A DNA stretch of 64,000 bases from Acipenser ruthenus (GCF_902713425.1 NC_081214.1:10816641-10880640), one strand, 5' to 3'; shown: positions 3,963 through 63,600, counted from the first letter of the stretch. Notes: generated by a model from the letters alone, not told the origin. Numbers and translations are program-made.

Positions 3963-4028
3963 TCACTGCCCCCCTCCCTCGTTGGTCCTCAAGGCTCCAA
4001 TCACACTCTGGATGTTCTCTTCTGGAAC
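3963..4028 (-). CDS. CASTOR1-like: CASTOR-like terminal coding exon: VPEENIQSVIGALRTNEGGGQ*, stop TGA at 3963-3965; the 3'UTR continues to lower coordinates
   Basis: Matches the human C-terminus VPEDGIGSVIEVLQRRQEGLAS*. Acceptor cttttgttag|GTTCCAGAAGAG. It starts in phase 0, consistent with the preceding exon. Confidence 0.7.
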   Translation of the reverse strand, partial: VPEENIQSVIGALRTNEGGGQ

Positions 4029-4164
4029 CTAACAAAAGAAAAATAAGAACATATTGAGAGGCTTTGGAGTAACAGTCTGCTAACGGCAACAAACCGCATT
4101 CTGAACACCACTGTGCTGTTCCAATGGTTAATCTCACCTCCCTCTGCAAGCAGGTTCATTTAAG

Positions 4165-4385
4165 AACATAAAAGTTTAGAACGAGAGGTCGTTCGGTCCA
4201 TGTAAGCTCATCTGGTTCCTAGAAGCTGATTGACATCAAAACTTTTGTCCAGTTGGGGTCTTAAAGGATCCAAGTTCTTCTGCCTCAACAACAGGACTAG
4301 GTAACCCATTCCATCCCCTCACCACTCTGTAAAGAAGTGTCTCCTTCCTTCTGTCCTAAATCTACCTCTGGTCCTAGTTTCTTTT
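4165..4385 (-). mobile_element. CR1-like 3'-end fragment in reverse orientation, lying in the CASTOR terminal intron/3' region
   Basis: The reverse complement matches the tail consensus (...gagtggtgaggggatggaatgggttacctagtcctgttgttgaggcagaaga...ggatcctttaagaccccaactggacaaaagttttgatgtcaatcagcttctaggaaccagatgagcttacatggaccgaacgacctctcgttc). Confidence 0.7.
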
Positions 4386-6344
4386 TTTGTTGTTTGTTTG
4401 TTTGTTTTCATAAAAATGTAGTTGTCAGCAATTAATTTCACCCCACTTTTCTCCCAGTTTGACATATCCAATTCTATTTTAAGCTCAGCTCACTGCTACC
4501 ACCCCTGTGCTGTCTCCAAAGCGGCGAAGACGAACACACGCTGTCTTCCGAAGCGTGTACCGTCAGCCGACCGCTTTTTTTCACTCTGTCAGAGGACAAT
4601 GTAGCTCTGGGCAGCCTACAGGGGTCGCTGGTGCATGGTGAGCTGAGGACACCTTGGACACATGTATTGCCCAGTTGATTTATGATCCACGACATGTAAT
4701 TTTAAAAGGGTCAGCAATATAACTCTTGACAGTAACAACACGGTTCACAGCAAAGGTAACGTAATGAGTTTTTTGTAACACCTTTAATTTTTAATATGTT
4801 TTGACAACACTTTATAGAACTGGAAGGTGACTATGAAACCGTACGCTTCACAATTACTTTTACAATCACATGACGTGTGATGAGTCTACCTGTTTAGTCG
4901 AATAGAAAGTGACAGTTGACCTCAGTGATCTGTTCCGTGCTACGCATACTGGTGGATGGATACAAGTTTAACAACTATCTAGATATTCTGAATGTATAGA
5001 TCCAGTTGTTTGTCCCAGTTCAACATCCTGTTCCACTGGTCCTTCTCTTGATCTCATTGGCAAGGTTGGAATTTAACCAGCATGGTCACTCCTCCTCCTC
5101 CTCCTCCTCCTCCTCCTCCCCTGCTGTATGACTCAGCCTGATTCTCCTTACTCTAATAAGAGTGAAGGACTGCCCCTGATTATTAACAGTACCCCTCCTC
5201 ACACAAGGCTGCCCCGCTCTGGACTGATTTCAGGAATCAGGAGCTGGAGAGAGTGTCCTCAGGTCACTGCACACCAGCGACCCCTGTGGTCTGACTGGGC
5301 GCCCGCGGGCTTGCCTGTAAGCTGCCCAGGGCTGCGCTATCCTCCGACGCTGTAGCTTTGGGTGGCTGCATGATGAGTCTGCAGTGTGTAAAAAAGCGGG
5401 CGGCTAACGGCACATGCCTCGGAGGACAGCGTGCGTTCGTCTTAGCCCCTCCCGAGTCAGCGCAGGGATGGTAGTAGTGAGCTGAGCTAAATAAAATAAT
5501 TGAAACCTACTAAATTGGGGAGAAAATAACAATAAAATAATAATTGGCGACTACTAAATAAAAATAAAAAAGAATTGCCAAGCTTCATGACCATTTGATA
5601 AGCGATGTGTTTAAAAATGTGAGTGTGTGACATACAGACAGATAGATGAACGGGTAGACAAACAATCCCTATATTCCCAGAATCTGATGTCATCAATAAC
5701 TCATTCTAAATAATATTAATAAGTACTGCCCTGACTCATGAGTAAATCCTTTACCAGCTTTGTAAAAACGGAACTGTGCGATCACATTTCTCCATGCAGA
5801 ATGTTTATGCTGTTCTATGTTGTGAAAATAAATAAATGGTGTTTGTTTTAAAACATATTTTTGGTTGTACCATTAATTTACTAAGAGTATGGCTCTACCT
5901 CTGCTACGCTCCCCTGCCTCCAGAGCCCGCTCCTTCTCCACCCTTGCTCCGCAGTGGTGGAATGACCTTCCTACAGATGTCAGGACTGCCCAGATCCTGA
6001 CCACATTCCGGTGCCTCCTTAAGACTCACCTCTTCAAACAGCACCTGTAGAACTCCTCTGTTTGTATCCTGGGACACTATCACCCTTCATTTAAATGTGC
6101 TTTATTTTCCTCTTATCTGCCCCCTATTTTACTGCATTTAATCCTGTACTTCAGAATACTGTAATCTGCCAAGTGTTTAACCTGTAGTATTTTGTATTTA
6201 ATCATATCCTGATGTAACTATCACTATTATCTGCTGTATTATTGAATTGTGGTTTGTCACACTTGTACTTTGCTTGAACAAAAGTTATTGTATTCCTTGC
6301 TCTTATTGTATTACTTGTATTGTAACACTTAATGCATTTGCTTA

Positions 6345-6386
6345 CGATTGTAAGTCGCCCTGGATAAGGGCGTCTGCTAATAAATA

Positions 6387-22376: not shown

Positions 22377-25300
22377 TGTCACAAAGACGGCCGGAGTGGG
22401 TGGCGTCAGACCAGAAGCAGGAAGTAAAGACAGAGATTTGTGGTTTGGTGAAGCTGAGCGAATGCTTTCGCTCAGCATTTAATAACAGAACAGAAAATAA
22501 AAGGTTTGAAACACAAAAAACACTGGACACGGCACTTGCGCCAAAATAAATAGACAAACAAAACGGACTAGACAGTGCACAGACAGACGAACAAAACACG
22601 GTGAGCAGATTTAACTTACTTTTACAATTACCTCCGTCTCCAAACCCGTTGTCCACTCACCGAACACCTAACCCCGACTGAAAGAAACGTGCATCTATAT
22701 ATACTGTTGTGCTGGGATTCAATTACTAATTAATTATTCACTTGAATCCCAGCACATTAATTAATTCTGTGCAACCCCGTGCTTACATATTACATTTAAC
22801 CAGCACGTGAAGTGATTTGTGCTCTCCTTGTGCCTAAATACAAATCTACACTTTTTAAATACACGTGAAACACAGACCCGTTTATATCCAGACCTCCCCC
22901 ACGACCTCCGGCAGTGAAACTGCTGCAGTGGGAGCAGGTCTCCGGACCTCCCCCACGACCTCCGGCAGCGAAACTGCTGCAGTGGGAGCAGGTCTCTGGA
23001 CCTCCCCCACGATCTCCAGCAGCGAAACTGCTGCTGGGGTTGGTGGTCTCCAGACCTCCTCCCCCTTCTTCGTGGCCGACAGCTCCCCTTTCTGGGGCTC
23101 CGGCCACCGTACTCCCTGTGGTGGAGGTACGGGAAGCAGAGACAGCTCCTGCTGTTCTGCTTCTGGCAGTGGCAGAGGCAGAGGCAGCTCCTGCTCCTCT
23201 GCTCCTGGAAGTGGCAGAGGCAGCTCCTGCTCCTCTGCTCCTGCCGGTGTAGGTGGCGGAGGCAGAGGCAGCTCCGGCTGCTCTGCTCCTGGAAGTGGCA
23301 GAGGCAGCTCCTGCTCCTCTGCTCCTGGAAGTGGCAGAGGCAGCTCCTGTTCCTCTGCTCCTGCCGGTGTAGGTGGCGGAGGCAGAGGCAGCTCCGGCTG
23401 CTCTGCTCCTGCCGGTGAAGGTGGGAGCAGCGTGTAGTCTCCTGCCGATGGAGGTGGGAGCAGCGTGTAGTCTCCCCCTTTTCCAGGGGACTGGTGCTGC
23501 TCTGCCTCTCTTGCAGGGAACTGGTGCGGCTCCGCTCCTATTGCAGGGGACTGGTGCGGCTCTGCCTCTGAAGGGAAAACCAGCAGGCATTCTTCCTCTG
23601 CTGGTTGTGCTGGGGAAACCAGCAGGCATTCTTCCTCTGCTGGTTGTGCTGGGGAAACCAGCAGGCATTCTTCCTCTGCTGGTTGGGCTGGGGAAACCAG
23701 CAGGCATTCTTCCTCTGCTGGTTGGGCTGGGGAAACCAGCAGGCATTCTTCCTCTGCTGGTTGTGCTGGGGAAACCAGCAGGCATTCTTGCTCTGCTGGT
23801 GAAGGTGGGAACAGCTGCCTCTCAGGCTTCGGATTCCCGCGGTCCTCTCGTCTGGGCGCTGGACGCTCGCGGCCCCCCTGTCTGGGCGCTGGACGCTCGC
23901 GGTCCCCCCGTCTGGGTGCTAGTTCCTCCTCTTCATACTGGGTGGGGCATATGGCTAATGTGTGCCCATAAGCCCCACAGCCAGGGCATAACTCTGCCGC
24001 GAGGTTCTTTAAAAAAACCTCCCAGCCATCATCCCCGACCTCCTCCCTTTTGGGCTGTGGACGCCCGACTCCTCCCTTTTGGGCTGTGGGCGTTCGGGCT
24101 CCTCCCACTCAGGCGTAGGAAGTTTGGGCTCCTCCAGCTTGGGCTGTGGACGCTCTGGCTCCTCCCGCTTGGGCTGTGGACGCCCCGACTCCTCCCGCTT
24201 GGGCTGTGGACGCCCCGACTCCTCCCGCTTGGGCTGTGGACGTTCGGGCTCCTCCCACTCAGGCGTAGGAAGTTCGGGCTCCTCCCGCTTGGGCTGTGGA
24301 CGCTCAGGCTCCTCCCGCTCAGGTACTGGAGAGGGCAGCGACTGCTCCTCTCCCTCTTGCTCACTGGAAGGCATCCCTCCCATGTCTGCAGCTAGGTACC
24401 CCAGCACCACCATGGTGAGGTCACGAACGGATGCCGGGTTGTGCTGTTGCTCCCAGTCCTCCCATCGTTTCCCATCTCGCATCTGCAGCGCGTGAATAAC
24501 CCAGGGGAGGTCACTGGCGAAGTTCCCCTCGGGGTGCACCAGCCAGTCCCATATTTCCCGGGACGGTGGGGAACCCGGTGGCAGTGGGGTGGCTACTGCC
24601 CCGTTGTGGCTGTCCTCCTCCCAGCCCGGCATGCAGGATGAGGGCTGCAAGCTGCTTCCGCTGCTTCCTGCAGCTCTTTCTTCCCATCCTCGCTTTACTA
24701 TTTTTTTTTTTTTTTTTTTTTTTTGTAATCCAAAACCCCCTCTCCTGGTCTGACGGTTGGAGGCGCTGTTTATCCCACGATGACACCACGTGTCACAAAG
24801 ACGGCCGGAGTGGGTGGCGTCAGACCAGATGCAGGAAATAAACAGACAGAGATTTGTGGTTTGGTGAAGCTGAGCGAATGCTTTCGCTCAGCATTTAATA
24901 ACAGAACAGAAAATAAAAGGTTTGAAACACAAAAAACACTGGACACGGCACTTGCGCCAAAATAAATAGACAAACAAAATGGACTAGACAGTGCACAGAC
25001 AGACGAACAAAACACGGTGAGCAGATTTAACTATTTACTTTACTTTTACAATTACCTCCGTCTCCAAACCCGTTCTCCACTCACCGAACACCTAACCACG
25101 ACTGAAAGAAACGTGCATCTATATATACTGTTGTGCTGGGATTCAATTACTAATTAATTATTCACTTGAATCCCAGCACGTGAATTAATTCTGTGCAACC
25201 CCGTGCTTACATATTACATTTAACCAGCACGTGAAGTGATTTGTGCTCTCCTTGTGCCTAAATACAAATCTACACTTTTTAAATACACGTGAAACACAGA

Positions 25301-29194: not shown

Positions 29195-32100
29195 AAACTT
29201 CGTCAAACACAACCACTAGAAATCCAGACAGCCAACACATTTGAGCCACTTCAACATTTAGATGACCAAAACCAACATCACGAGAATGAAAGAAACAACA
29301 CCCAGGACCCTATAAACAGTGCTGACCAGGCAGCAAAAAGAAGGGAGGTCATGATTGTTGGGGACTCCATACTGAGAAACACAGCAAGTTCAGTTAGCAG
29401 TTTGGACCCCCTTACTACAACAGTGTGCTGCCTTCCAGGAGCCTCAGTCAAGCACATCACTGAGAATGTGGACAGGCTCCTAGAACGAACAGGAGATGAC
29501 CCGGTAGTAGTCGTCCACATTGGTACAAACAACATTGGAAGAGACAGGCCAAGATACCTGCAAAACAAATTCAGAGAGCTAGGAAGGAAATTAAAAGACA
29601 AGACCAAAACTGTGGTATTTTCTGGGATACTGCTGACGCCTTGCAAAGGACCATATGGACAGCTGGAAATACAAAATCAAAATGCATGGCTGAAATCGTG
29701 GTGCACACAGGAAGGCTTCACCTTTCTTGAACATTGGAGCACTTTCTACAACAAGGACTATCTATACAGGTGGGACGGACTGCACTTAAACAGAAAGGGA
29801 ACCAATCTACTCGGAGAAAGGATCCTTCAGGCGGTACAGAAGCATTTAAACTAGAAAGGAAGGGGGGAGAAAACAAAAAAACAGAAGGGAGACTACATCA
29901 AAACAAGAGCAACAACTCAGGTAAGACCACTATTAAATGTATTTATCTTAATGCTAGAAGTCTCAGAAACAAAATGTTAGAACTTGAAGCTACTGCACTA
30001 ACAAGCAACTACGATATGATAGGTGTTACAGAAACTTGGTTGTCTGAGAGTGATGGAGACGAATATAATATTAGTGGGTACACACTGTATAGGAAAGACA
30101 GGCAGGACAGAAGAGGCGGAGGGGTAGCGCTATACATAAGAAATAGCCTTGAAGCCCAGGTGTTAAATCAGGACAAAGAAAACAATGCAGAATCAATATG
30201 GGTCAGAATAATGGACACAAATTCAAAGGGCATAATAATAGGAGCATGCTATAGACCGCCAAATTCAGACGCTGAGCAAAATAATCTGTTATACAATGAC
30301 ATTCGAAATGCGTGTAGAAAAGGAGAAGCCATACTAATGGGGGATTTCAACTTCCCCTGTATAAAATGGGAAAACCCAATGGGGGGCACGACGGACGAAA
30401 TTGAAATGGTGGAAATGACAAATGACTGCTTCCTAACGCAATTTGTCAAGGCACCGACTAGAGGGGAGGCATGCCTTGACTTAGTCTTCTCAAATAATGA
30501 AGACAGAATAACTAAAACAGAGGTCAGAGAGCCATTGGCAAACTCAGACCACAACATGGTCTCATTTGAAATATTTTTTAAAACCCCAAAAGTAATGACT
30601 AAAGCTAAGGTTTACAATTTTAGAAAAGCAAACTACGAAGACATGAAACAGAGACTAACAGAAGTAGATTGGAGTAAAATAGAGAAAACTTCCACAGAAA
30701 AAGGGTGTCTGTCTTTTAAAAATGTAGTACTAGAGGCACAAAACAATTACATCCCAAAAGTAGACAAATCTAAATCTAAAACAAAATGGCCAAAATGGTT
30801 TAATAGATCAATTAAAAAAAATATTCAGCGAAAAAAGGCACTTTACAGAGCGTTTAAAAGAGACCAAAAACAAAGCACACAGAAAGAGTACTTGGAACTG
30901 CAAACATAAGTCAAAAAGGAAGTTAGAAAGGCCAAGAGAGAGACAGAAATCAATATTGCTAAGGGGGCTAAAACCAATTCCAAAATGTTTTTCCAATATT
31001 ATAACAGCAAGAGAACATTCAAAGAGGAGGTTAAATGTCTAAGAGACACAAATGGCAAAATCATAGATGAAGAAAAAAAAATAGCAAATATATTAAATGA
31101 TTACTTTTCACAGGTTTTTACAAAGGAGGACACGGACAACATGCCTGACATGTCGACCTGTTCCTATCCAGTTTTAAATAACTTTAGCATAACAGAGGCA
31201 GAAGTGTTAAAGGGACTAGGAGCTCTTAAAATAAACAAATCCCCTGGGCCAGATGAGATCCTCCCAATAGTACTCAAAGAAATGAAAGAAGTTATTTACA
31301 AACCGCTAACCACGATCATGCAACAGTCTCTTGACACAGGGGTTGTACCAACAGACTGGAAAATAGCAAATGTAATACCAATCCACAAAAAGGGAGACAA
31401 AACCGAACCAGGTAACTACAGACCAATAAGCCTGACTTCTATTATATGTAAACTTATGGAAACTATAATAAGATCCAAAATGGAAAATTACCTGTATGGT
31501 AACAATATCCTGGGAGACAGCCAGCATGGTTTTAGGAAAGGGAGATCATGTCTAACTAACCTACTTGACTTTTTTGAGGATGCAACATTGAAAATGGATA
31601 ACTACAAAGCATACGACATGGTTTATTTAGATTTCCAGAAAGCTTTTGACAAAGTCCCGCATAAAAGATTAATTCTCATACTGAACGCAGTAGGGATTCA
31701 AGGAAATGCATGCACATGGATTAGGGAGTGGTTAACAGGTAGAAAACAGAAAGTACTGATTAGAGGAGAAACCTCGAAATGGAGTGAGGTAACCAGTGGT
31801 GTACCACAGGGATCAGTATTAGATCCTCTGCTATTCCTAATCTACATTAATGATTTAGACTCTGATATAGTAAGCAAACTCGTTAAATTTGCAGACGACA
31901 CAAAAATAGGAGGAGTGGCAGACACTGTTGAAGCAGCAAAGGTCATTCAAAATGATCTAGACAGCATTCAAAATTGGGCAGACACATGGCAAATGAAATT
32001 TAATAGAGAAAAGTGTAAAGTATTGCATGCGGGCAATAAAAATGTGCATTATAAATATCATATGGGAGATAGTGAAATTGAAGAAGGGAACTATGAAAAA

Positions 32101-38889: not shown

Positions 38890-40162
38890 CAGGGCTCTTC
38901 AACTAGTTTTTTAAAGGGGCCAGATTGGAAAAAAGGTAGGAGTAGGCGGGCCAGAAGTACATTACTCTGCACATTTTAAGCAATATAATAAATATGATAT
39001 AACGTAATGTTTGTATATTGAACAAGACTTACAAATGTTACCATATGAACAGTACTTTAATAATAGAACAGTGCAAACATTTAACAGAGTTATATGTGAC
39101 ATTAATAGTATAACTATTAGTATAATATTATAATCTAAGTCTGAGAACATGAACTGTGTGCCAATGTTGTTGTAAGTATTATTATTATTATTATTAATTT
39201 CTTAGCAGACGCCCTTATCCAGGGCGACTTACAATTGTAACAAGATATCACATTATACATTATTTCACATTATACAGATATCACATTATTTTTACATACA
39301 ATTACCCATTTATACAGTTGGGTTTTTACTGGAGCAATCTAGGTAAAGTACCTTGCTCAAGGGTACAACAGCAGTGTCCCCCACTGGGGATTGAACCCAC
39401 AACCCTCCAGTCAAGAGTCCAGAGCCCTAACCACTACTCCACACTGCAAGTAAGGTAATGATGTGACACAAAAAACCTTCAACTTTCAGCATGCCACTTA
39501 AAACAAATAAACCTGTGTCTTTGTTTCTATTTCATCTCTGACACAGCAATGAAAACCTGAATATGTTAAAAACAGACAGATGAGTCCCATGGAAAGGGAT
39601 GTACCGGTGATCGCGTTTCTATGTTTTGGTTCATTTCCCAAATAATGACATTTGATGTTTCTGACCAGACTGTTAATCTGCTTTGTATGGTATACTTTTT
39701 AATGAATCTCAAACCACAAATCGATGAGTGCACGATCTCACAAGAGCTGCACAAGCATGTTGGTCGGGAGAGATCAGCGCCTCTACGTTTTAGCTTCTAA
39801 CAGCTGAGCCCTCTGGATACCCATTTCCAAAAGCTCTGTGTTAAAATGGCTTTTCACATTGTATTCCTTAACTACCGACACACATTCATTGCACAGTAAA
39901 CACATTGGCTTTGCGTTCGGTACAGTTGGTAAAATATATAAGTATTTACTGGTCCACTCATTGTTAAATCTACGATTTCCACCCAAAGGGGCGGTGTGAT
40001 GAGAGCGCTGCTTTGCCGGACACAAAAATAAAACACATCTTAAATCACAAATTGATTTATGATGTTACTATTTTGTTTTCGTTTTTTTGTTTCTCATATT
40101 TATTTTAGTTCATTTTTATCATTTTTGTTGACGGTTGGCAGGCCGCCAGTTGAAGAGCCCTG
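38890..40162. mobile_element. hAT-Charlie-like non-autonomous element (1273 bp). The TIRs are CAGGGCTCTTCAACT / AGTTGAAGAGCCCTG. The 8-bp TSD is degraded (GTGTACTC / CTGTACAC, 6/8 match). It contains a transposase N-terminal remnant on the minus strand at 39783..40025.
   Basis: The 15-bp terminal inverted repeats resemble Charlie-type CAGTGGTTCTCAAC termini. The internal ORF reads RRFNNEWTSKYLYILPTVPNAKPMCLLCNECVSVVKEYNVKSHF, the hAT N-terminal motif. Confidence 0.65.
39175..39447 (-). mobile_element. tRNA-derived SINE, same family as 19785-20065, in reverse orientation, sitting inside the hAT-N element
   Basis: The reverse complement of ...cagcagtgtggagtagtggttagggctctggactcttgactggagggttgtgggttcaatcccc...ttgtaagtcgccctggataagggcgtctgctaagaaattaat(aat)n is present. 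Confidence 0.8.
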
Positions 40163-49559: not shown

Positions 49560-52500
49560 ACATTAGGCAGCCAGGCTTCCCAGCGACAGCGTGTGGAAGC
49601 GACATCATGGGAGAAGTACGAGTGGACAAGTACAACGCAGTTAGAAGCAGAAAGGAGGAATTACATCTTTAAATTTGGAGTTGCTTTAATCAGAAAACAT
49701 TGCAGCTTAAAGCCTTGCAGCTGCGTGTATTTTTCCTATAACAAGCTGAAACTCGGAGCAGCTGATTCAAATTCCGCGGCGTTCTGGGACACGGGGGAGG
49801 GGCGGAGCCCGCAGCACAAGCACAAACACAAAGAAAGGCAGCCAGGCTTCCCAGCGACAGCGTGTGGAAGCGACATTGTGGGAGAAGTACGAGTGGACAA
49901 GTACAACGCAGTTAGAAGCAGCTGAAAGCAGGTTGACAGCTGCAGAAGCTAAACTAAACTTAAAAAAAAAAAAATGGTCTTCAAGCCAGTAATCTGTGAC
50001 AACTGCATGATGTGGGAAATCCGAGAAAACCAAACAGAGCTCAACCAAGTTTGTGTAAAGTGCCGCACGATCCAGGACTTGCTTCAGCGATTAAGCCTGC
50101 TAGAAAAGGAGCTGGAGGAAATGAGACAGCAACAGGAGCTTGAGGAGCTGACACACCCACAATTCATGGAAGTCTGCACCCCTAGCAGACTGAAAGCCAC
50201 CAGGGAGATGGAAGAGAGTCGAAACAGCTGGGTTCAGATAGGCAGAAGCAGGGAAAAAAAGAAACTTCGTCAAACACAACCACCAGAAATCCAGACATCC
50301 AACAAATTTGAGCCACTTCAACATTTAGATGACCAAAACCAACATCAAGAGAATGAAAGAAACAACATCCAGGACCCTATAAACAGTGCTGGCCAGGCAG
50401 CAAAAAGAAGGGAGGTCATGATTGTTGGGGACTCCATATTGAGAAACACAGCAAGTTCAGTTCGCAGGTTGGACCCCCTTACTACAACAGTGTGCTGCCT
50501 TCCAGGAGCCTCAGTCAAGCACATCACTGAGAATGTGGACAGGCTCCTAGAACGAACAGGAGACGACCCGGTAGTAGTCATCCACATCGGTACAAACAAC
50601 ATTGGAAGAGACAGACCAAGATCCCTGCAAAACAAATTCAGAGAGCTAGGACGGAAATTAAAAGACAAGACCAAAACTGTGGTATTTTCTGGGATACTGC
50701 CGGCACCTTGCAAAGGACCATATTGACAGCTGGAAATACAAAATCAAAATGCATGGCTGAAATCGTGGTGCACACAGGAAGGCTTCACCTTTCTTGAACA
50801 TTGGAGCACATTCTACAACAAGGACTATCTATACAGGTGGGATGGACTGCACTTAAACAGAAAGGGAACCAATCTACTCGGAGAAAGGATCCTTCAGGAG
50901 GTCCAGAAGCATTTAAACTAGAAAGGAAGGGGGGAGAAAACAAAAAAAACAGAAGGGAGACCACATCAAAACAAGGGCAACAACTCAGGTAAGACCACTA
51001 TTAAATGTATTTATCTTAATGCTAGAAGTCTCAGAAACAAAATGTTAAAACTTGAAGCTACTGCACTAACAAGTAACTACGATGTGATAGGTGTTACAGA
51101 AACTTGGTTGTCTGAGAGTGATGGAGACGAATATAATATTAGTGGGTACACACTATACAGGAAAGACAGGCAGGACAGAAGAGGCGGAGGGGTAGCGCTA
51201 TACATAAGAAACAGTCTTGAAGCCCAGGTGTTAAATCAGGACAAAGAAAACAATGCAGAATCAATATGGGTCAGAATAATGGACACAAATTCAAAGGGCA
51301 TAATAATAGGAGCATGCTATAGACCGCCAAATTCAGACGCTGAGCAAAATAATCTGTTGTACAATGACATTCGAAATGCGTGTAGAAAAGGAGAAGCCAT
51401 ACTAATGGGGGATTTCAACTTCCCCCGTATAAAATGGGAAAACCCGATGGGGGGCACGACGGACGAAATTGAAATGGTGGAAATGACAAATGTCTGCTTC
51501 CTAACGGAATTTGTCAAGGCACCGACTAGAGGGGAGGCATGCCTTGATTTAGTCTTTTCAAATAATGAAGACAGAATAACTAAAACAGAGGTCAGAGAGC
51601 CATTGGCAAACTCAGACCACAACATGGTCTCATTTGAAATATTTTTTAAAACCCCAAAAGTAATGACTAAAGCTAAGGTTTACAATTTTAGAAAAGCAAA
51701 CTACGAAGGTATGAAACAGAGACTAATAGAAGTAGATTGGAGTAAAATAGAGAAAACATCCACAGAAAAAGGGTGTCTGTCTTTTAAAAATGTAGTACTA
51801 GAGGCACAAAACAATTATATCCCAAAAGTAGACCAATCTAAATCTAAAACAAAATGGCCAAAATGGTTTAATAGATCAATTAAAAAAAATATATTCAGCG
51901 AAAAAAGGCACTTTACAGAGCGTTTAAAAGGGACCAAAAACAAAGCACACAGAAAGAGTACTTGGAACTGCAAACACAAGTCAAAAAGGAAGTTAGAAAG
52001 ACCAAGAGAGAGATAGAAATCAATATTGCTAAGGGGGCTAAAACCAATTCCAAAATGTTTTTCCAACATTATAACAGCAAGAGAACATTCAAAGAGGAGG
52101 TTAAATGTCTAAGAGACACAAATGGCAAAATCATAGATGAAGAAAAAAAAATAGCAAATATATTAAATGATTACTTTTCACAGGTTTTTACAAAGGAGGA
52201 CACGGACAACATGCCCCACATGTCGACCTGTTCCTATCCAGCTTTAGCATAACACAGGCAGAAGTGTTAAAGGGACTAGGAGCTCTTAAAATAAACAAAT
52301 CCCCTGGGCCGGATGAGATCCTCCCAATAGTACTCAAAGAAATGAAAGAAGTTATTTACAAGCCGCTAACCAAGATCATGCAACAGTCTCTTGACACAGG
52401 GGTTGTACCGGCAGACTGGAAAATAGCAAACGTAATACCGATCCACAAAAAGGGAGACAAAACTGAACCAGGTAACTACAGACCAATAAGCCTGACTTCT

Positions 52501-53440
52501 ATTATATGTAAACTTATGAAAACTATAATAAGATCCAAAATGGAAAATTACCTATATGGTAACAATATCCTGGGAGACAGCCAGCATGGTTTTAGGAAAG
52601 GGAGATCATGTCTAACTAACCTACTTGACTTTTTTGAGGATGCAACATTGAAAATGGATAACTGCAAAGCATACAACATGGTCTATTTAGATTTCCAGAA
52701 AGCTTTTGACAAAGTCCCGCATAAAAGATTAATTCTCAAACTGAACGCAGTAGGGATTCAAGGAAATGCATGCACATGGATTAGGGAGTGGTTAACATGT
52801 AGAAAACAGAAAGTACTGATTAGAGGAGAAACCTCGAAATGGAGTGAGGTAACCAGTGGTGTACCACAGGGATCAGTATTAGGTCCTCTGCTATTCCTAA
52901 TCTACATTAATGATTTAGACTCTGATATAGTAAGCAAACTCGTTAAATTTGCAGACGACACAAAAATAGGAGGAGTGGCAGACACTGTTGAAGCAGCAAA
53001 GGTCATTCAAAATGATCTAGACAGCATTCAAAATTGGGCAGACACATGGCAAATGAAATTTAATAGAGAAAAGTGTAAAGTATTGCATGTGGGCAATAAA
53101 AATGTGCATTATAAATATCATATGGGAGATAGTGAAATTGAAGAAGGGAACTATGAAAAAGACCTAGGAGTTTATGTTGACTCAGAAATGTCTTCATCTA
53201 GACAATGTGGGGAAGCTATAAAAAAGGAAAATAGGAGGCACTTTTTTGCACAGAGAATTGTGAGGGTCTGGAACCAACTCCCCAGTAATGTTGTTGAAGC
53301 TGACACCCTGGGATCCTTCAAGAAGCTGCTTGATGAGATTCTGGGATCAATAAGCTACTAACAACCGAACGAGCAAGATGGGCTGAATGGCCTCCTCTCG
53401 TTTGTAAACTTTCTTATGTTCTTATGTTCTTAACTATTTT
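49560..53440 (+). mobile_element. CR1-like LINE, 5'-complete-looking copy. It has a 5'UTR with an ~85-bp segment duplicated at 49567-49650 and 49838-49925. The intact ORF1 runs 49974..50726: a Cys-rich N-terminus, a coiled coil and the esterase. ORF2 is split into three frames (51042..52016, 51962..52252, 52264..53361) and carries a ~370-bp deletion near its 3' end.
   Basis: Same family as 29195-32670. ORF1 reads MVFKPVICDNCMMWE...CVKC...LEKELEEMRQQQELEEL...MIVGDSILRN. The tail reads ...ctttcttatgttcttatgttctta. Confidence 0.85.
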
Positions 53441-53461: not shown

Positions 53462-54306
53462 TTGGGAAGGAGGAAGCACCAACACAAACGACTTGTTCTA
53501 TGCTATCTTTCAGAGGCCTGTCGTTTCTTCAGATTACAGCATCCTGACATTAAGATCGGCTTCTCCAAATCTGCAGAGCTGAAACCAAAGGAGTGTGTAT
53601 TGGCAGGCAGTAGCGGTACACATGCTGTGTGTGTCTGCACAGCACACCAGAATATAAAGCTGATGTTCATTTGTTCTAAACAAGTGCCAGTACAGAAGTG
53701 CCTTTGAATCACTATCGACATTTCTTGCCTTATCTCAGGAGTTCCCCACCAAACGTCAATTGCCACTTAGGAAAGTATGAAAATTGTCCATCACTTGAAG
53801 ATTTCAGGAGTCATCTACAAATGCTCTTTCAAGATAGCCTGGTGGACTCAGTGGAGTATCGGAAGTGGGCTACAACTGACAGATCCACCCTTCAGACAAT
53901 CAATGAACCTGCTGATCAGTTCATAGAGACTTTCACAAGCCATTTCCAACGTCTTTGTCGACATGATCTCATAGCAAAGATGCAGATTGCATATTATCAA
54001 CAGCTGAGGGATGAACTCCTTCAAGAAAATGAATTCCTAGTTGTTGGTGATTTTGCAGAAAACTTGACTTTCGTCATGCAAGCTGAAGCACAATCACACC
54101 ATTGGCACAACTCTAAGGCAACCATACATTCTTTTGTTTGCTATTGGCAAGACAAAGATGGGAATTCTCAGCACATCTCATATGTTGCAGTATCAGAATG
54201 CAAGACTCATGACACAGCCTCTGTTTATCTCTTTCAAAAGCATCTTTTTTTTGTGAACATTTTTTTATTGTTTTTAGACAATGCACTACAATACTATTCA
54301 ATATAA
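53462..54306 (+). mobile_element. Frameshifted ORF pair (53462..53707 and 53698..54306) encoding an unclassified, conserved-looking TE-type protein (C/H-rich segment ...CVCTAHQNIKLMF..., then ...VVGDFAENLTFVMQAEAQSHHWHNSKATIHSFVCYW...HISYVAVSECKTHD). It lies between the CR1 tail and the solo LTR.
   Basis: The strings DFAEN...Q.E.QS.HW.....TIH.FV.Y and SEC..HD resemble a family of TE-associated proteins common in fish and cnidarian genomes. I cannot assign a superfamily from memory. Confidence 0.4.
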
Positions 54307-54392: not shown

Positions 54393-55027
54393 TGTGGCAA
54401 TGTGCCCCCGCCCCTGTGTGCTTATTATGTGTTGTATGTTGCATGCGTGTGTTAATGTTGGTGTATAGATTGGTACACGGGATATAAACGGGTCTGTGTT
54501 TCACGTGTATTTAAAAAAGTGTAGATTTGTATTTAGGCACGAGGAGAGCACAAATCACTTCACGTGCTGGTTAAATGTAATATGTGAGCACGGGGTTGCA
54601 CAGAATTAATTCACGTGCTGGGATTCAAGTGAATAATTAATTAGTAATTGAATCCCAGCACAACAGTATATATAGAGACACGTAGCACTCAGTCGGGGTT
54701 GGGTGTTCGAGAGTGGAGAACGGGTGTGGAGAAGGAGAAACTAGAAAGTGAAAGAAAGTGAAAGATCGTAAATATAAGTGTTTGTACTCACCGTGTTTGT
54801 TTGTCTCTCCGTGCACCGTTTGTTAAGTGTTTAGTACGTTTTGTTTGTCTATTTATTTTGGCGCAAGTGCCGTGTCCAGTGTTTTTGTCTGTTCAAACCT
54901 TTTATTTTCTGTTCTGTTATTAAATGATGAGCGAAAGCATTCGCTCAGCTTCACCAAACCCCAACTCTCTGTCTGTTTATTTCCTGCATCTGGTCTGACG
55001 CCACCCACTCCGGCCGTCTTTGTGACA
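54393..55027 (+). mobile_element. Solo LTR of the same family as the LTRs at 22377-25401, in + orientation, flanked by a 5-bp TSD GTCTC (54388-54392 and 55028-55032). It is inserted into the 3' part of the L1 ORF2.
   Basis: It is the reverse complement of the LTR copies at 24791-25401, starts TGTGGCAATGTGCCC and ends TTTGTGACA. Identical GTCTC pentamers abut both ends. Confidence 0.85.
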
Positions 55028-55035
55028 GTCTCTCA

Positions 55036-58000
55036 CAGCTGTGACAATTTCCGACCATGGTGACATAGATTTGTGCTTAGCACCGTGCAGCTTGGCTGTA
55101 GATCTTTCTAAACGTGCGATGGACTGGAGATGTAATAACCAGGTATGATATAATGGAAGGTCGGGATTGAACCAGGACTGTAGAATAGTTTTGTTTGCAG
55201 CGGTAAGAGAAGCTAGCAGGAGCCTACGATTAACTAAGGATAGACAGAGTTTGGAATCATCATTTAGTAGAAATAAAGTGGGTGTTGGTTTAATTTCAGT
55301 CTTCAATAATTTAGAAACAGTAATAGCCACACGTTCCCAAAAACTGCACACTGCTGAGCACTCCCAAAACATATCTAATGTAGTACCCACTTCACCTTTT
55401 TTACAAATGAAACAAAATGGGTCTGTTGATATTTTCATTTGAAAATGCTTGAGTGGAGTGGTGTAATGCTTGAGTGGAGTGGTGTGCTAAATTCTTTGAA
55501 GAGATAAAAGTATTTTCCCACCCTTTATCCCAATTAGGAGTGACACCATATTTACACAGTTCTCTATCCCAAATAGTTAAAACTGTCAGAGGTTTTAAAG
55601 TATGTTTTATAAAACGATCATATAGAAAATACACTAACCCTTTGGTCAAAGAAAACCACCCTACAATTGGATGGGAAGGTAACCCAGTGTCCAGAGGTAT
55701 TCCACAAGCACGGACAGCCGAACGGAGCCGCAAGTACATAAAGTAGGATGAACCGGGTAGAGAGTAGGTGTCCTTAAGGTCCTGGAAACTGCGTAGGCCC
55801 TTATCATTAAAAATGTCATTCAAAGTGAATATGCCTTTGGATGACCAATCTGCATACTTAAATGGTTGCCCCCCAGTCATTAACAAGGGATTATTCCATA
55901 TCGGAGAGCAGCTGTTAAATTTTGAAAAAACTCCAAGATTTCTTTTAGCCATTTTCCAGATCTTCAAGGAATTAACTATAATAGAACCTGCTCTAAGATT
56001 AAAGACCCTAGACTTATGCCCTGAAAAGGGAATATCTTGAAGCCTCAGTGGTGAAACCAGTAAGGCTTCAATTTTATGCCAAGGCACCAAAGATTCTGGG
56101 TTCAACCAAATCTGAAAGGCTCTTAACTGGAATGCCCAGTAATACAATTTAAAATTAGGAACCGCCAAACCACCAACCCCTTTAGGACGCTGTAAAACTG
56201 AGAATCGAATTCTTGGTCGTTTGCCTCTCCAGATAAATTTAGAAATGATGGAATCAACCTGTTTAAAGTAATTAATTGGTGGAGAAAGAGGCAACATGAA
56301 AAATAAGAAGTTAATGCGGGGCAGGATATTCATCTTGATAATTGAAATTTGACCATGTAAGGATAGAAGTAAGGGTGCCCATCTCTCTAAATCATTTTCA
56401 ATTTTCTTTAATACATCTACAAAATTATCTTTAATAATCTGATTAAGCGTGGGTCGGATTTTAATACCTAAGTAAATGAAGCCGTTAACATTACATTGAA
56501 TTGGGAAATTTTGGGGTAAGGAGAGGTTCTTAGCTTTTGTATTTAGAGGCATAAGAATAGATTTATTCCAATTTATCTTGTACCCTGATAAATTCCCATA
56601 TTCCGTAAACAAATCCAGCATCTTTGTGATAGATTTAGAGACATCAGAAATAAATAGCAGGATGTCGTCTGCATATAATGAGATATGATGTTCAGAATCG
56701 TTAATACTAATGGGAGTAATATCTGAGCTTTGTCTTATAGCTTGGGCCAGCGGTTCTAACGATAAAGCAAATAATAAGGGCGACAAAGGACAGCCTTGCC
56801 AGGTGCCTCTTTCTAAAATAAAAGGTGAGGACCTATATAAGCCAGTTTGTACAGATGCTGTAGGAGTATTGTACAAAGTATCAATCATTTTAATAAATAA
56901 TGAGCCAAAGCCAAATTTTTCTAAAACTAACCACAAAAAGGACCATTCAAGATGGTCAAAAGCCTTTTCAGCGTCAAGTAATGATTTCCATTACACGAGA
57001 GTAGATGTTAAAACTTCATGCTGATTTGAACTCGGCTCTCGCCAAGATAAGCACCAACTAAGACGTAGCTTTACAGTAAACTAATGTGATCCATATGTGT
57101 CTCCATCCATTTACGTTTCCTTCCATATGATGATGTAGATATCCTTCTGTCTGGTGTTAATGGCTGAAGTGTAATGCTGGCTCCAGGGATCAGCTTATTT
57201 TGCCTCCCTGGCGCATCAGCACACACGACGGCTGCGATGCTGGCTCCGGGGATCAACCAAAGTGCGGCCTCCCCAGCGCATCAGCATGACAACCGTCTGG
57301 ATTGAGCTAAGTAGGGTACATCTCTGGGGTTTTCAAGTGGGCACCTTCCATCCTCAGTGTTTCGTCGACTAGCCCACGACACCTCAAGAGGGCTCGACGG
57401 TGATTCTGGCGTCCCAGCATCACCCCCCTCCGTCCCCCACTCAACTCAGCCCAGCTTACTTACCTGTCCCCAGCCAGAATCTTTCCGTCTCAACCACAGC
57501 CAGTTGCTGCTCCTCTCTGCTGCTTCAGATAAGTTCTTCACTGTGCGACGCAACTCTTGGCCACTGAATCCGACGTCTCTGAGAAACCGGGTTGTAGAGT
57601 GTGCCACAAATCCTCGACAACCCACTTCCACTGGGTAAACCCGAACTCTCCATCCTCGCTGTTCCGCTTCAGTGGCTAGTTGAGCATACCGCAGTTTCTT
57701 CCTCTCATACGCCTCATCTACAGCGTCCTCCCATGGCACTGTTAACTCTACCAGGTGAACAAGGCGTGCTGATCCAGACCACAAGACAATATCTGGTCGA
57801 AGGTTAGTGGTGGCAATCTCAGGTGGAAAAATAAGCCGTTAACCAACATCTGCCAGCATATTCCAGTCTCTAGCAGCTTCCAGTTGTCCTGGGCGAGGAT
57901 TGGTTTTAACACCTTTTCTTGGTGGTTGCTCTCCTGGGCGGAGGAATGTTGTCTTTTGTGTGTAATGTTTTGATGGAACAGGTGGCAACTTATTGGTCAT

Positions 58001-61000
58001 GTTACGCTTGTCTTCCAATGCTAAGGCCAAACATCGCAGCACCTGGTCATGGCGCCAAGTAAACCGTCCTTGGCTAAGAGCCACCTTACATCCTGTCAAA
58101 ATGTGCCTTAATGTTGCAGGTGATGAACACAAAGGACATGAGGGATCCTCTCCTACCCAGAGGTTTAGGTTCTGTGGTGATGGGAGAACATCATATGTTG
58201 ACCTGATGAGGAAACTGATCCTGCTCTGTTCCATTGACCATAGGTCTTGCCAGCCAATCTTGCGTTGTTCCACACTCTCCCATCTCATCCATTCTCCCTG
58301 TTTGGCCTGGGAAATGGCCTTTATACACCTCATCCTCTCCTCCTGCTTCTGCACCTCGTTGACTACCAGCTTCCTTCTTTGAGCTGGGGCCGCCTTGTGC
58401 CATGTAGGAGGAGTTGAACTGAAACCAAGACCCCCTCTTCCATGCTGAACTTGCCCCATGATATCACCAATTCGAAGGGCAGCCTTTGCATCTTCCACAG
58501 CTTTCTTTGCCGCCCACTTTCTTCCAGTTTTCAACACAGGTGCTGCCTCCCTTACGCATTTATCGCGTGACTCTACTAATGTCATTTCCAGTCTGACCTT
58601 GGCGCACTTAAACTCCTCGGTTAGAGCAGAGACTGGTAGCTGCAGTATTCCTTTACCATAAAGTCCCACTCTGCTGAGGCAGCGTGGAACTCCCAACCAT
58701 TTCCTGATGTATGAACTGATTAAAGCTTCCAGCTTCTCTACTGTTGTCAAAGAAACCTCGTACACAGTCAGTGGCCACAGCAACCTCGGCAGTAGACCAA
58801 ACTGAAAGCACCAGAGTTTTAGTTTACCTGGTAGTGCGCAGCTGTCTATGCTCTTCAACCCTTCCACTGCTTGTTGTCTAACTTCTCCCACACGAACTGT
58901 GTCCTTTAGATCCCCGTCGTACCATCTCCCAAGACTCTTCACTGGCTTCTCAGACACTGTTGGTATTGCCTCACCATTAATGAAGAATGTTTTATCTACT
59001 ACTTTGCCTTTAATTATAGAGATGCTCCTTGATTTAGTGGGCTTGAATTGCATTCGTGCAGGCTACTGTTGTAGTCATGGTTGTCATGTCATCCATGTAT
59101 GCTCGAATTGGTGGTAGTCGCATTCCAGAAGCCAAGCGCTCTCCTCCTACTACCCATTTTGATGCCCTAATGATTACTTCCATTGCCATGGTAAAAGCCA
59201 GTGGAGAAATGGTGCATCCTGCCATTATTCCAACCTCTAGGCATTGCCATGTAGTGCTGAATTCTGAAGTTGAAAAACTGAATTGCAAATCTCCAAAATA
59301 GGCTTTCACTAAATTTGTTATTGTCATCGGTACACTGAAAAAATCAAATGCTGCCCAAAGTAGTTCATGTGGCACTGAACCATATGCATTAGCCAAATCC
59401 AGGAATGTCACATGGAGCTCCTTCCTCTCCTTTTTAGCTGATTGAATTTGTTGCCAGATCACATTGATGTGTTCTAAGCAACCTGGGAAACCTGGAATGC
59501 CCGCTTTTTGTATTGAAGTGTCAATGAAGCAGTTCTTTAATAGGTAAGCTGACAATCTCTGAGCAATAATGCTGAAGAAAATCTTGCCTTCTACGTTTAA
59601 TAGGGAAATGGGACGAAACTGACTGATGCTTGTAGAATCTTTTTCTTTAGGTATAAAGACTCCACCTGCTCGGCGCCATGCTCTTGGTACAACCTGTTTT
59701 TCCCATGCCACTTTCATCAATTTCCACAGAATTCGTAGAACTCCTGAAGCACTCTTGTACACTCTGTACGGAACTCCATTAGGCCCTGGAGATGATGAAG
59801 CCCTTGCTTTTTTCACAGCTTGCTCTATTTCTTTCCACTTAGGTGCACAGTCCTCCATTTGGTATTCTGGTGGATTGATAGGTGGGATGTCTGACGGAAT
59901 TGACATAGGCTCCTGCCTTTTTGAATCTGTATGTGTTTCCTCCAAATATCTCTCCAGCTCAACCTTAGATGCTTTTAGTGTGCCATTCTTCTCACTGGTG
60001 AATAACTTCTTTACAAATTTGAATGGGTCTTTATAAAAGTTAGCTCTCGCACGCTCCTTCTTTTTGTAGCGTTTCCGTAGGCGCTCAGCTCTGCGCAATG
60101 TTGCAAGCTTATCTTTTATGACCCTTTGTAAGAGATTGAGTCCCTCCTTCTGACTTTGTTCTGCTCTTCTCCATTGGTTCCTCAGCTGTCTCCTTTCTCT
60201 AACTAAGCGTTCAATCTCCTGCTGCCGTCTAGACTTTCCAGGAATAGTTTGTACTTTTTCCTTCCTTTTTTCAACTCCAAACCTCTCACTTCCATATGCG
60301 TAGATGATGTCCCCAAATTTATCCAGCTTCTTTTCAACTGTTCCACTTAATCTTTCCAATGCAACGCAGAGATCTGTGTTTACTGTGTCCCATGCAGTTT
60401 TCTCACAAGCTCTTGGCCATTTAACTCCAGGCTTGTGCCCGTTGAGGTTCTTTTCTCTCTTATGCTGGTTTGTCTGACCGGGTTCACAAGGATCATTAGG
60501 TTCATCACTAACTGTGTCCATGCAAGTCCTCCTCACATCTATGACAGGGGTGCTGATATCCTGCGAACTGTGAAAGAATTGCGCACGAGTCAGGTTGACT
60601 CCCAGTATTGTCTAATATATGAAGTAGACGCCGTAAATTGTCTGAGTCAAGCCTGCCCTTCATAAAGTCTGTCTGATCATGACAGATTAAAGACCCTATA
60701 TACGGTTCAAGCCTCAAGACCAGAGCCTTTGCATACAATTTAAGGTCTGAATTAATTAACAAGACCGGTCTATAGCTTGAGCAATCAAGGGGGTCTTTTC
60801 CTTTTTTCAGTAATAAAGAGATTAAGGATATCTTTTGGTCTCTATGAAAAGAACCCATGTCCATAGCATAATTAATAGATTTTAGTATTAGTGGCCCCAC
60901 CAAATCCCATATTGTCAATAATAGTTCTGGAGGCAAACCATCTAAACCAGGAGACTTCCCTTTTTGCATAGAGTGTACAGCACGTTCCAGCTCCTCTAAA

Positions 61001-63600
61001 GTTGGTGGAGCCTCCAGCTGTTCACTCTGTTCCTTACTGAGTCTAGGTAACTTGAGATTATCCAGAAACTCTTTAACCCTGTCTGTGTTGGATTGATTAT
61101 CAGACATATACAAAGCAGAATAAAAGTCCTTAAAAACACCATTAGTCTCTTCAGGATCAGATGTCAAGACACCATCAGAAGTTCTTATTGCGGTTATGCA
61201 CGCTAAACGTTCATTATTCTTAAGTCTCAAGGCTAAAAGCCTACTAGGCCGATCTGCGTTTTCATAGTATAATTGTTTGCTTTTGTGTAATAAGAATTCT
61301 GCTCTAACTGAGGTCAAATCATTGAATTTATTTTTCAAAATTATTAGTTGTCTAGCTGTCTGTCAAATATTTACTTTTCTGCTCTTTTTCAGTATTTAGT
61401 ATTTCTTTCTCTGATTGAACTATTTGTCTATTGCGAGAAGAATTTAAGTGAGAAGCAAATGCTGTACAGTTGCCTCTTAAAAAACATTTAGTTACTTCCC
61501 ACAATATTTGTGGATTGTCAGTCGAGTTGGAGTTCAACTGGATAAATTCAATCAGACCAGAACGCAGCTGTTTAAGGAACTCCTCATTCTGTAGTAAATA
61601 AGTATTAAATCACCATCTATTAGCGTGAGACGATTTGGGTACAAGGCTGAAAGAATATAATATAGGGGCATGGTCTGAGATTAAAATCGGTAAAATATCA
61701 GTACCCAGCACAAACTGAAATATATCTGGAGAAACAAAAACGTAATTTAGCAGAGATATGATTTAAAAATTGGGGGTCAAAAGAATTGGGTGCATATACT
61801 GATACAAAGCAGAACTTAGAGTTATTCAATTCACACCGAACATAAGTAAAGCGTCCCTCCTCATCAGCACCTGTTCCATGAATATTAATATTTAACTTCC
61901 TATTAACCAGAATTAAAACTCCTTTAGACTTGGTAGACGCACATGAGTTAGCCAACACTCTATAATGCTTATTTTGAATTCTGTTAACATCAGAGGACCT
62001 AAAATGTGATTCTTGTAAAAGTGCTATGTCGACTTTCTTGCGGTGTAAGAAATCAAGGCATTTAGTTCTTTTTGCAGGAATATTCAGGCCACGCAGATTC
62101 CAAGACACAACTACTAGATCACACATTAAGGTGGTTTTAATACCAAGGCAGGCCACCCATCTCTCCCCAGTAAGAAAAGCACTTTTCTTAATAATATAAG
62201 AGACATAAGGATACACAAAATGTTCCAAAATATAAACTTGTCCAGCATCATCACTGTATAAAATCCCAGCACAGAAAAAAAGAACGACGGAACTATGATC
62301 ATTAACGACAATAGCAAAAAAAACAACTAAGATTGCCAGCTGCTAAGGAGAAGTGTCCAAACTTGCTGACTAAAAAACAAAACGTTTACAAGACTTTGTG
62401 GGCAATAACGCCAAGATGTAAGTCCATCCCCGAGAGCAGGTCTCCTCTAAGAATAGCAAGGTTTACAAAAAAAAAAAAAATTGAATGGTGTATACAAAAT
62501 GCACACATATACATATATACATATATATCTATATACACATACTGTATATACACACATACACATATATATACATACCTACATACATACACACACATACACA
62601 TACATACACATACTGCATATAAAATAAAGGAGATTTATATTTCTAATAGTAAATAAATAAAAATACTAGCCTACATATCCAGGTACGTGCACGGATACGC
62701 AAGCATATACACCTACATTCGTATCAGTGTGATATTTTAAGTAACACTTAACACTATATATAACTTTACACCATACATGCAATGCACGCACACCCAGCTG
62801 CACAGAGCCATATATAATTACCGACATCTTGAAATGTGGTGTAGCAGGAAATTAAATATTAGGAAAAAATATATAATAATAATAATAATAATCATAATAA
62901 TAATGAGTAATTGAAAGGATAATCTAAACCATCGACTGACCAAACTGGTAAAATCCAATTCAGCATTTAACTCAGAGAAAGATCCATTTCACTTGATTTC
63001 TGACAAAAAGTGATCAGCTTCATCAGGAGAATTACAGTAGTATACTCAACCGTTTCTCACAATTTTCAATTTGGCAGGGTAGATTAGGTAACTCGGGATT
63101 GATCTCTCTCTCTCTCTGTGCTTGCAAAAAAGCGACGGCGTCTGAGCCCTCGGAACCTTCTTTCAGCCCGGTGAGTCTAATATTTGATCGGCGATTCCGC
63201 TCTTCCATGGCTATCAATTTGCTTTGTAGTTCAGATAACTTGTCTTTGTACTCATGGAACTCCTGTCTGTCCGTTCTCTGAACCTGCTGCACGTTATCAA
63301 CTCTCGCTTGTACGGCCTTCAGATTAGCAAACTGCTTGTCTACTTTCTCTTCCAATTGTAGTATCCGTTTATTAATATCATTCAGGTAATCTCGTATGCC
63401 CCTTACTTCTTGCAGTACTTCATTTAGGCTCTCCTGCATGCATTCTTTAATGGCTTTTTTAATTTTGGGATCTAGCCTCACAGGTGCAGCCTGGAGCTCG
63501 AGTTTATCATGTATGCCAGATGAGGAGATGGTATATTAGCATTTATAACCGCAGCCGATCTCTTCACTGGGGTCTCCATGATCCCAAAATAAACAAAAAA
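55036..63600 (-). mobile_element. L1/Tx1-clade LINE on the minus strand. ORF1p is at 63032..63481. The ORF2 APE endonuclease is at 61698..62228, the ORF2 linker/RT start at 60508..61338, the RT at 55401..56936 and the Cys-rich C-terminal domain at 55036..55438. ORF2 is interrupted by a ~3.3 kb nested insertion at ~57300-60600. The 3' end is cut by a solo LTR at 55027.
   Basis: ORF1 has a coiled coil plus EERNRRSNIRLTGLKEGSEG, the L1 ORF1p RRM hallmark. EN reads VVSWNLRGLN...DIALLQESHF. RT reads KGKSPGLDGLPPELL...QTDFMKGR and then ...WQGCPLSPLLFALSLEPLAQAIR...ISLYADDILLF. The C-terminal domain has CFICKKGE...H...C. The ORF1 C-terminal region (62330-63030) is disrupted by microsatellites. Confidence 0.85.
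57300..60600 (-). mobile_element. Non-LTR retrotransposon with a C-terminal restriction-like endonuclease (R2/R4/Rex6/HERO-type), nested inside the L1 ORF2 RT region. The N-terminal basic region plus RT is at 59034..60536. The RT C-terminus plus CCHC finger is at 57839..59053. The PD-(D/E)XK RLE domain is at 57446..57784. There are at least two frameshifts. The 3'UTR at 57000-57440 contains a ~62-bp tandem duplication.
   Basis: RT motifs: FRPISLLNVEGKIF, TFLDLANAYGSVPHE, YMDDMT. The N-terminus has no APE domain. The C-terminus reads CPLCSSPATLRHILTGCKVALSQGRFTWRHDQV (the CCHC + RHD motif of RLE-type elements), followed by LVELTVPWEDAVDEAYERKKLRYAQLATEAEQRGWRVRVYPVEVGCRGF (E...D/E...K..KY, a PD-(D/E)XK-like core). 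Confidence 0.75.

Follow-up and report, generated by a model that had tools for sequence, protein, structure and literature searches.

A HERO-clade LINE nested in the reverse transcriptase region of a resident L1 element of Acipenser ruthenus

How does one long interspersed nuclear element (LINE) come to lie within the reverse transcriptase (RT) gene of another, and does such nesting betray a preferred target? The question is raised by a stretch of 64,000 nt from the genome of Acipenser ruthenus (GCF_902713425.1 NC_081214.1:10816641-10880640), hereafter called the window, in which the open reading frame (ORF) 2 of an L1 element is interrupted by a second retrotransposon that lacks long terminal repeats (non-LTR), one with a restriction-like endonuclease (RLE). 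All coordinates, those of an initial annotation as well as our own, are counted in the window, and the features of the host L1 and of the insert all lie on its minus strand. Very probably, a LINE of the HERO clade inserted later, and in the same orientation, into the RT region of the resident L1 by target-primed reverse transcription (TPRT). It should be noted that nothing about such an insertion of one transposon into another is out of the ordinary; nesting of this kind is routine and by itself matters little. The use of the case lies in annotation: the window sets exact limits for a young HERO family whose copies diverge by about 1%, it provides a clear-cut instance of RLE-LINE insertion (5′ truncation, a putative 2-nt microhomology junction, essentially no target duplication), and it gives a relative date, the L1 being older than the HERO copy.

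The interrupted L1 and its junctions

The insert is found at 56981-60572 on the minus strand and measures 3,592 bp rather than the 3.3 kb or so estimated in the initial annotation; its edges are set by a 99%-identical full-length copy on the contig L001. In a tblastn search with P0121, an L1-like homologue, residues 338-597 are aligned to 61350-60571 and residues 598-1100 to 56978-55470, so that residue 598 follows directly on residue 597 once the insert is disregarded. When 60573 is joined to 56980, one open frame results that reads ...PDSCAIL-L-LDAEKAFDHLEW..., and at this point the joined L1 is as long as ten homologues (CAIL-L-LDAEKAFD as compared with the consensus ...CAVFSLDAEKAFD...). 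Because the two L1 halves are colinear, the L1 was in place first and the HERO element came second. Colinearity and order had both been recognized in the initial annotation, as had the two L1 halves, whose limits were drawn too narrowly: the L1 extends 24 codons past QTDFMKGR and resumes 16 codons before WLVLEKFGFG. The insert had also been placed antisense to the L1 ORF, which is incorrect with respect to relative orientation, since both elements are coded by the minus strand. Their reading frames differ, and in a three-frame translation no fusion protein is encoded.

The host ORF2 extends from approximately 62129 to 55055 on the minus strand, and residues 1-1244 of P0121 are matched across it in order (tblastn). 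An apurinic/apyrimidinic endonuclease (APE) part at 61701-62129 (Pfam Exo_endo_phos, 1.2e-5; P0121 residues 1-136) precedes the N-terminal part of the RT at 60573-61350 (P0121 residues 338-597; Pfam RVT_1), which ends with ...QTDFMKGRLDSDNLRRLLHILDNTGSQPDSCAIL(S). On the other side of the insert the ORF resumes with (L)LDAEKAFDHLEWSFLWLVLEKFGFG, the remaining RT and the thumb being located at 55470-56980 (P0121 residues 598-1100; Pfam RVT_1 and phmmer). The Cys-rich C-terminal region at 55055-55471 (P0121 residues 1106-1244; ORF 54977-55438) is in another frame than the RT part. This succession of APE, RT and Cys-rich C-terminus is that of human L1 ORF2p (PDB 8sxt/8c8j), with which the joined host RT is colinear over residues 451-890 (phmmer, E = 1.6e-76). 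The host thus has an APE N-terminal to an L1-type RT that is colinear with L1 ORF2p, a layout by which L1 and Tx1 are not distinguished. In contrast to human L1 it represents a fish L1 lineage, the copy is interrupted and frameshifted, and its closest database proteins are unnamed and only 53-59% identical.

At the 5′ junction identity to L001 begins at CACAGTTCG, and the 'CA' at 60572-60571 fits either the insert or the end of the L1 Ser codon TCA; it could therefore represent a 2-nt microhomology. At the 3′ junction the element ends with ...ATCAT and is followed by TA-CTTGACGCT, the 'TA' at 56980-56979 being either L1 or extra bases. Two readings of the target are possible. It may have been ...CTTT|TACTTG (CTT-TTA-CTT, ...CTTTTACTTGAC), in which case the insertion would have been blunt and the L1 would already have carried a Ser-to-Leu exchange. 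It may also have been ...CTTTCA|CTTG (CTT-TCA-CTT, ...CTTTCACTTGAC), and then 'TA' would be either an imperfect 2-nt 'CA/TA' duplication or two extra bases. Judged from the junction sequences, the target would have been altered by at most 2 bp in either case. A change of 0-2 bp is as expected of an R2-type nuclease, which is known to cut the two strands at almost facing positions.

Anatomy and clade of the insert

The anatomy of the insert can be read directly from a comparison with L001, a contig of 4,302 bp in which the family unit of 4,200 bp (50-4249) contains an ORF (203-3742) for a protein of 1,179 aa, P0001. Three blastn blocks relate the two copies: L001 578-2098 corresponds to window 60572-59052, L001 2135-3727 to 59059-57467, and L001 3763-4249 to 57467-56981. 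Over the three blocks the copies differ at 32 of 3,601 aligned positions (0.9%, or 99.1% identity), and the lengths balance exactly: 4,200 minus 528 (5′ truncation), minus 44 and minus 36 (two internal deletions) equals 3,592 bp. The 99.1% identity of the two HERO copies, which come from different samples, points to recent activity of the family. In a database search P0001 was 98% identical to the conceptual translation of the insert, and the best named matches were two predicted proteins of Acipenser ruthenus with 95-96% identity; close homologues are present in teleosts, lamprey, amphioxus and scallop.

The former single ORF is now broken into two frames. The first (59057-60569) covers the region before the RT and the RT fingers and palm up to YMDD, with a match to RVT_1 at about 59067-59654 (7e-19), the only domain that Pfam recognizes in the insert. 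It ends at a 44-bp deletion relative to L001, whose scar at 59052-59059 lies between two GCACNAAT repeats, the blastn blocks overlapping here by 8 nt. The deletion takes out the segment after YMDD, where P0001 has 'TNRLLGKLTNNIEWA', and shifts the frame at about 59056. The second frame (57842-59056), which is 99% identical to residues 645-1175 of P0001, encodes the RT thumb and the linker with a CCHC zinc knuckle, CPLCSSPATLRHILTGC, at 58088-58138. The spacing of the knuckle, CX2CX8HX4C, agrees with the CX2-3CX7-8HX4C described for RLE-LINEs (PMC5678591). This frame is closed by an in-frame TAA at 57839-57841, which has arisen from CAA, as P0001 has Gln at this position. Beyond the stop follow the RLE domain (57449-57838), in which a 36-bp deletion relative to L001 (scar at 57467) has removed the original end of the ORF together with its stop codon, and the 3′ untranslated region (UTR) at 56981-57448, as defined by blastn to L001 3763-4249. 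The copy ends with ...GTGTAATGGAAATCAT and is without a poly(A) tail. The 3′ terminus ...GGAAATCAT is identical in three independent contexts, namely in the window and at both ends of L001, and in each it is followed by a different, unrelated sequence.

The C-terminal domain belongs to the PD-(D/E)XK fold: it combines a beta-strand core bearing the catalytic D, D/E and K residues with structural similarity to known PD-(D/E)XK enzymes. Its motifs are RPD (57791-57799), ELTV (57737-57751, within ELTVPWE), ERKxxKY (57686-57706) and VEVGCRGF (57608-57631). In 36 of 36 homologues, which are 39-68% identical to the window sequence, R14, P15, D16, E31, K47, Y51 and E71 are invariant, and an AlphaFold2 model of the domain has a predicted local distance difference test (pLDDT) value of 86.3. 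The RT, the CCHC finger and the nuclease had all been correctly named in the initial annotation. Its location of the fold at 57446-57784 needs to be corrected at the start: a start at 57784 would omit the catalytic Asp of RPD, and the domain therefore begins at about 57838.

The 3′ UTR contains a duplication at 57174-57299, first described as a tandem duplication of about 62 bp at 57170-57300. The duplication is real, if imperfect: two units of about 50 nt, 63-65 nt apart, are identical at 39 of 50 positions (78%). Its alignment score is 44, the best of 500 shuffles having reached 25, and it was also picked up by a seed-based repeat search; Tandem Repeats Finder, run on the 3′ UTR, did not call it. 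As L001 shares the duplication, it is a feature of the family and older than the window copy. Rfam has no family that matches the HERO 3′ UTR.

As a result of the 5′ truncation the window copy has neither a 5′ UTR nor a start codon, and the conserved CxCGW...IHQG...C motif of the N-terminus is gone as well. It was thus never autonomous, being non-autonomous from birth, and with the later lesions it is dead.

Knowledge of HERO elements in fish, in lancelet and in sea urchin dates back to 2004-2009. A phmmer search against the PDB does not discriminate for the insert RT (3.6e-19 for L1 ORF2p, 9e-19 for R2); since such a search cannot separate RLE from APE LINEs, a tree was built with published references. 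For this, 22 sequences (RT and linker) of R2, R8, R9, R4, Dong, SLACS, CRE, HERO, NeSL and Utopia were taken from the RLE-LINE alignment in supplement 10 of PMC5678591, and the window's own L1 and CR1-like RTs together with one L1-like homologue served as APE outgroups. The neighbour-joining tree (438 columns, 27 taxa, 200 bootstraps) unites the insert with the HERO references in 100% of the bootstraps and makes it the sister of HERO-1_BF in 98.5%. P0001, on which the identities of the insert family were measured, is 54.7% identical to HERO-1_BF, 49.2% and 47.6% identical to two fish HERO references, 38.9% to HERO-1_SP and 27.7% to HERO-1_PP, as compared with 15-26% to all non-HERO references over the 438 columns.

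The insert is therefore a member of the HERO clade and not of R2, R4/Dong or NeSL. The initial annotation had left the choice among R2, R4, Rex6 and HERO, of which HERO and the RLE type were right; and neither an affiliation of the RT with APE-encoding clades nor a missing PD-(D/E)XK fold, which had been set beforehand as the findings that would speak against an RLE element, was observed. The architecture is that of HERO too: a single ORF with an RT, a CCHC knuckle and a C-terminal RLE is seen both in the window translation and in the intact P0001, and full-length P0001 has no APE domain (Pfam finds only RVT_1). In ORF architecture and in having no APE the insert resembles HERO-1_BF of Branchiostoma floridae, HERO-2_DR of zebrafish and the fish entry BAC82598, and among the handful of copies examined no target specificity is evident; the window family is nevertheless separate from these named references, having only 48-55% amino acid identity to them, and the window copy differs in being 5′-truncated and mutated.

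That the insert belongs after all to R2, to R4/Dong/Rex6 or to NeSL/Utopia has a probability so small as to be negligible. These groups had been named as options, and the E-values against the PDB are much alike for R2 and L1 ORF2p. However, the identity to these clades is 15-26% as against 48-55% to three HERO references, which form a clade with the insert in every bootstrap; the spread of the homologues largely agrees with the published range of HERO, which comprises sea urchin, lancelet and fish (PMC9004415); and the insertion target is neither ribosomal DNA (rDNA), nor a microsatellite, nor a gene for a small nuclear RNA (snRNA). Considered singly, R2 fails with an RT identity of 20-22%, a separate clade and a target that is L1 ORF2 and not 28S rDNA. 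Moreover, the full-length relative has the N-terminal motif CxC...H...C rather than the zinc-finger/Myb set of R2 (R2Bm, R2Tg; PDB 8ibw, 8gh6, 9dou). R4 and Dong, which like Rex6 are RLE-type LINEs of fish genomes and whose targets are rDNA or a (TAA)n microsatellite, show 19-22% identity and have a clade of their own, the reference set containing no Rex6; and NeSL/Utopia, with spliced-leader or U2 snRNA genes as targets, form another, with 20-26% identity. An Rfam search of the whole window revealed no snRNA gene and no other known RNA family.

Mode of insertion and choice of target

The anatomy of the insert, its boundaries, clade and nuclease fold and the order of the two events follow directly from the data; the steps by which the copy arrived can be sketched from the biochemistry of R2. 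The HERO endonuclease would nick the target, and from the 3′-OH set free the HERO RNA would be copied into cDNA, beginning precisely at its 3′ terminus (...AAAUCAU, without poly(A)). Synthesis would have halted 528 nt before the 5′ end, after which the end of the cDNA may have been joined to the upstream L1 DNA at the 2-nt 'CA' overlap. A second-strand cut 0-2 bp from the first would leave essentially no target-site duplication or deletion. Such a course would agree with a 3′ terminus that is exact, with the truncation at the 5′ end, with an overlap of 2 nt and with the lack of a target duplication. Following insertion, the copy decayed slightly: it lost 44 bp and 36 bp in two deletions, acquired one nonsense mutation and underwent substitutions at 0.9% of positions.

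Three points weigh against this reconstruction. The TPRT steps are drawn from R2 by analogy. The tree that places the insert in HERO was calculated by neighbour-joining from 438 columns and 27 taxa without a Rex6 sequence, Rex6 being set aside via its published affiliation, according to which it is a member of the R4 family (PMC6274825). Finally, an intact copy of the host L1 family was sought, the best protein relatives were only 53-59% identical, and the window contains no second copy; the junctions are for this reason ambiguous by 2 nt.

Repeats are often misassembled, and R2-type RTs can jump between templates (PMC11371274), which is why it has to be asked whether L1 and HERO were joined here without any insertion, either in an assembly chimera or as the product of recombination or template switching. 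We regard this as very improbable: the L1 resumes at the next codon, and either a chimera or two template switches in succession would need to exit the L1 and return to it at one and the same nucleotide; an insert that ends exactly at the 3′ terminus of its family and is truncated at the 5′ end carries the signature of TPRT. Hardly more credit can be given to the view that the HERO family specifically targets L1 ORF2, that is, that one LINE parasitizes another and that the nesting reflects site specificity, at which the initial annotation hinted in calling the group often site-specific. It has in its favour that the insertion is precise, with a target change of 0-2 bp, and that in four of the five RLE clades target specificity prevails; HERO, however, is the clade that is mostly non-specific, even if some HERO families target microsatellites (PMC4640811). 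It is contradicted by the other copies, admittedly a small sample. When the host L1 protein was compared by tblastn with six HERO loci, only HERO's own RT was matched and no L1 was found in the flanks; the L003 copy sits in AT-rich non-coding DNA and the 3′ flank of L001 is an unrelated short repeat with an UnaL2-like tail. Among the handful of copies examined, three 3′ flanks are unrelated to each other and have no motif in common. The insertion of HERO into the L1 by TPRT thus looks like a chance event in a region rich in repeats, of which the L1 was one among many.

Head-to-tail copies and neighbouring repeats

The search for full-length relatives brought up an arrangement that the window copy does not share, since it is solo and truncated and has neither a head-to-tail partner nor a 5′ leader. 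In each of the six contigs retrieved that include a complete HERO 5′ end, the 3′ end of another copy immediately precedes it; the contigs represent at least three host lineages. In L001 (1-60) at least 49 nt of the 3′ end of an upstream copy are present. The upstream copy in L112 (minus strand, around 2500-2600), which belongs to a subfamily with 93% identity, is present over at least 2.3 kb. L002 (1-11243) is a tandem array with a period of 3,980 bp and 99.96% identity. L004/L005 have two units with a period of 4,564 bp, the 100% identity of which may be an assembly effect. In L003 (3744-3869 and 7827-7952), from an NCBI genome assembly, a 126-bp 3′ fragment stands before a full-length copy, and L006 (1-260) has the same junction of 5′ and 3′ ends. 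Among these contigs are two sturgeon-like ones with the same head-to-tail junction.

The full-length copies begin with a 5′ leader of about 155 nt (L001:50-205; L003:3870-4025; L002:7590-7745; L004:3868-4025). The leader is nearly invariant, and thus conserved far better than the protein, even across families with no more than about 62% protein identity to the window family. It is predicted to form hairpins with compensatory changes, among them an 11-bp stem with 6 covarying pairs. Rfam has no match to the leader; over five HERO loci its matches at gathering level are confined to L003, where they concern a tRNA-like neighbour and an UnaL2-type 3′ element. A ribozyme like that of hepatitis delta virus, with a P1 helix from +1, was considered and is not supported, as no conserved helix involves nucleotides 1-7. 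A metagenome scan with a 16-mer of the leader yielded 120 loci, of which only L112 has a true HERO leader, the others being chance matches.

It is conceivable, if less likely than not, that HERO elements normally propagate as head-to-tail units. One possible route is end-to-end template jumping of the HERO RT in vivo. Another is a promoter in the 3′ UTR of the upstream copy, an arrangement known from HeT-A of Drosophila. Thirdly, tandem copies might be transcribed together and their transcripts processed at the conserved leader, and self-targeted insertion also fits the head-to-tail contigs. With respect to the first route, R2 proteins are known to switch to a second RNA once a cDNA is completed (PMC11371274); jumping of this kind would yield a partial copy and then a full copy. 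In the searchable literature, Repbase not included, no report on head-to-tail propagation of HERO was found. The head-to-tail copies and the conserved leader could merit a dedicated survey.

The surroundings of the nested pair are a dense patchwork of retrotransposons. Besides the host L1 and the HERO copy, tblastn detects LINE RT fragments at 20496-20797 (+), 31021-31857 (+) and 52174-52917. An ORF of 365 aa at 52264-53361 (+) matches RVT_1 with 6e-39 and looks CR1/L2-like by its motifs. It is followed at 53698-54306 (+) by an ORF of 202 aa (...VGDFAENLTFVMQAEAQSHHWHNSKATIHSFVCYW...) without a Pfam match, which may be a fragment of a protein encoded by a DNA transposon or by another repeat.

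The short repeat (...TGTAAGTCGCCCTGGATAAGGGCGTCTGCTAA) that adjoins the HERO copy of L001 on its 3′ side has three occurrences in the window (39202-39256, 19982-20036 and 6344-6380), with 96-98% identity to that flank. It resembles the UnaL2 LINE/SINE (short interspersed nuclear element) 3′ element that Rfam calls in L003; at the gathering score Rfam calls none in the window.

Three further observations concern the host L1. Upstream of its ORF2, a coiled-coil ORF at 63032-63481 (minus strand), which ends with ...RRSNIRLTGLKEG and has only weak coiled-coil matches in Pfam, is a candidate for a remnant of L1 ORF1; we take its motifs to resemble those of L1 ORF1p and assign it to this L1 tentatively. 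Between this ORF and the APE domain, thus upstream of the latter on the minus strand, lies a (CA/TA)-rich microsatellite at 62333-62656. The terminal 200 bp or so of the L1 3′ end (54828-55027) recur twice in the window, at 24791-24990 and 22377-22574, with 94-95.5% identity; these are probably 5′-truncated copies or a SINE that shares the L1 tail.

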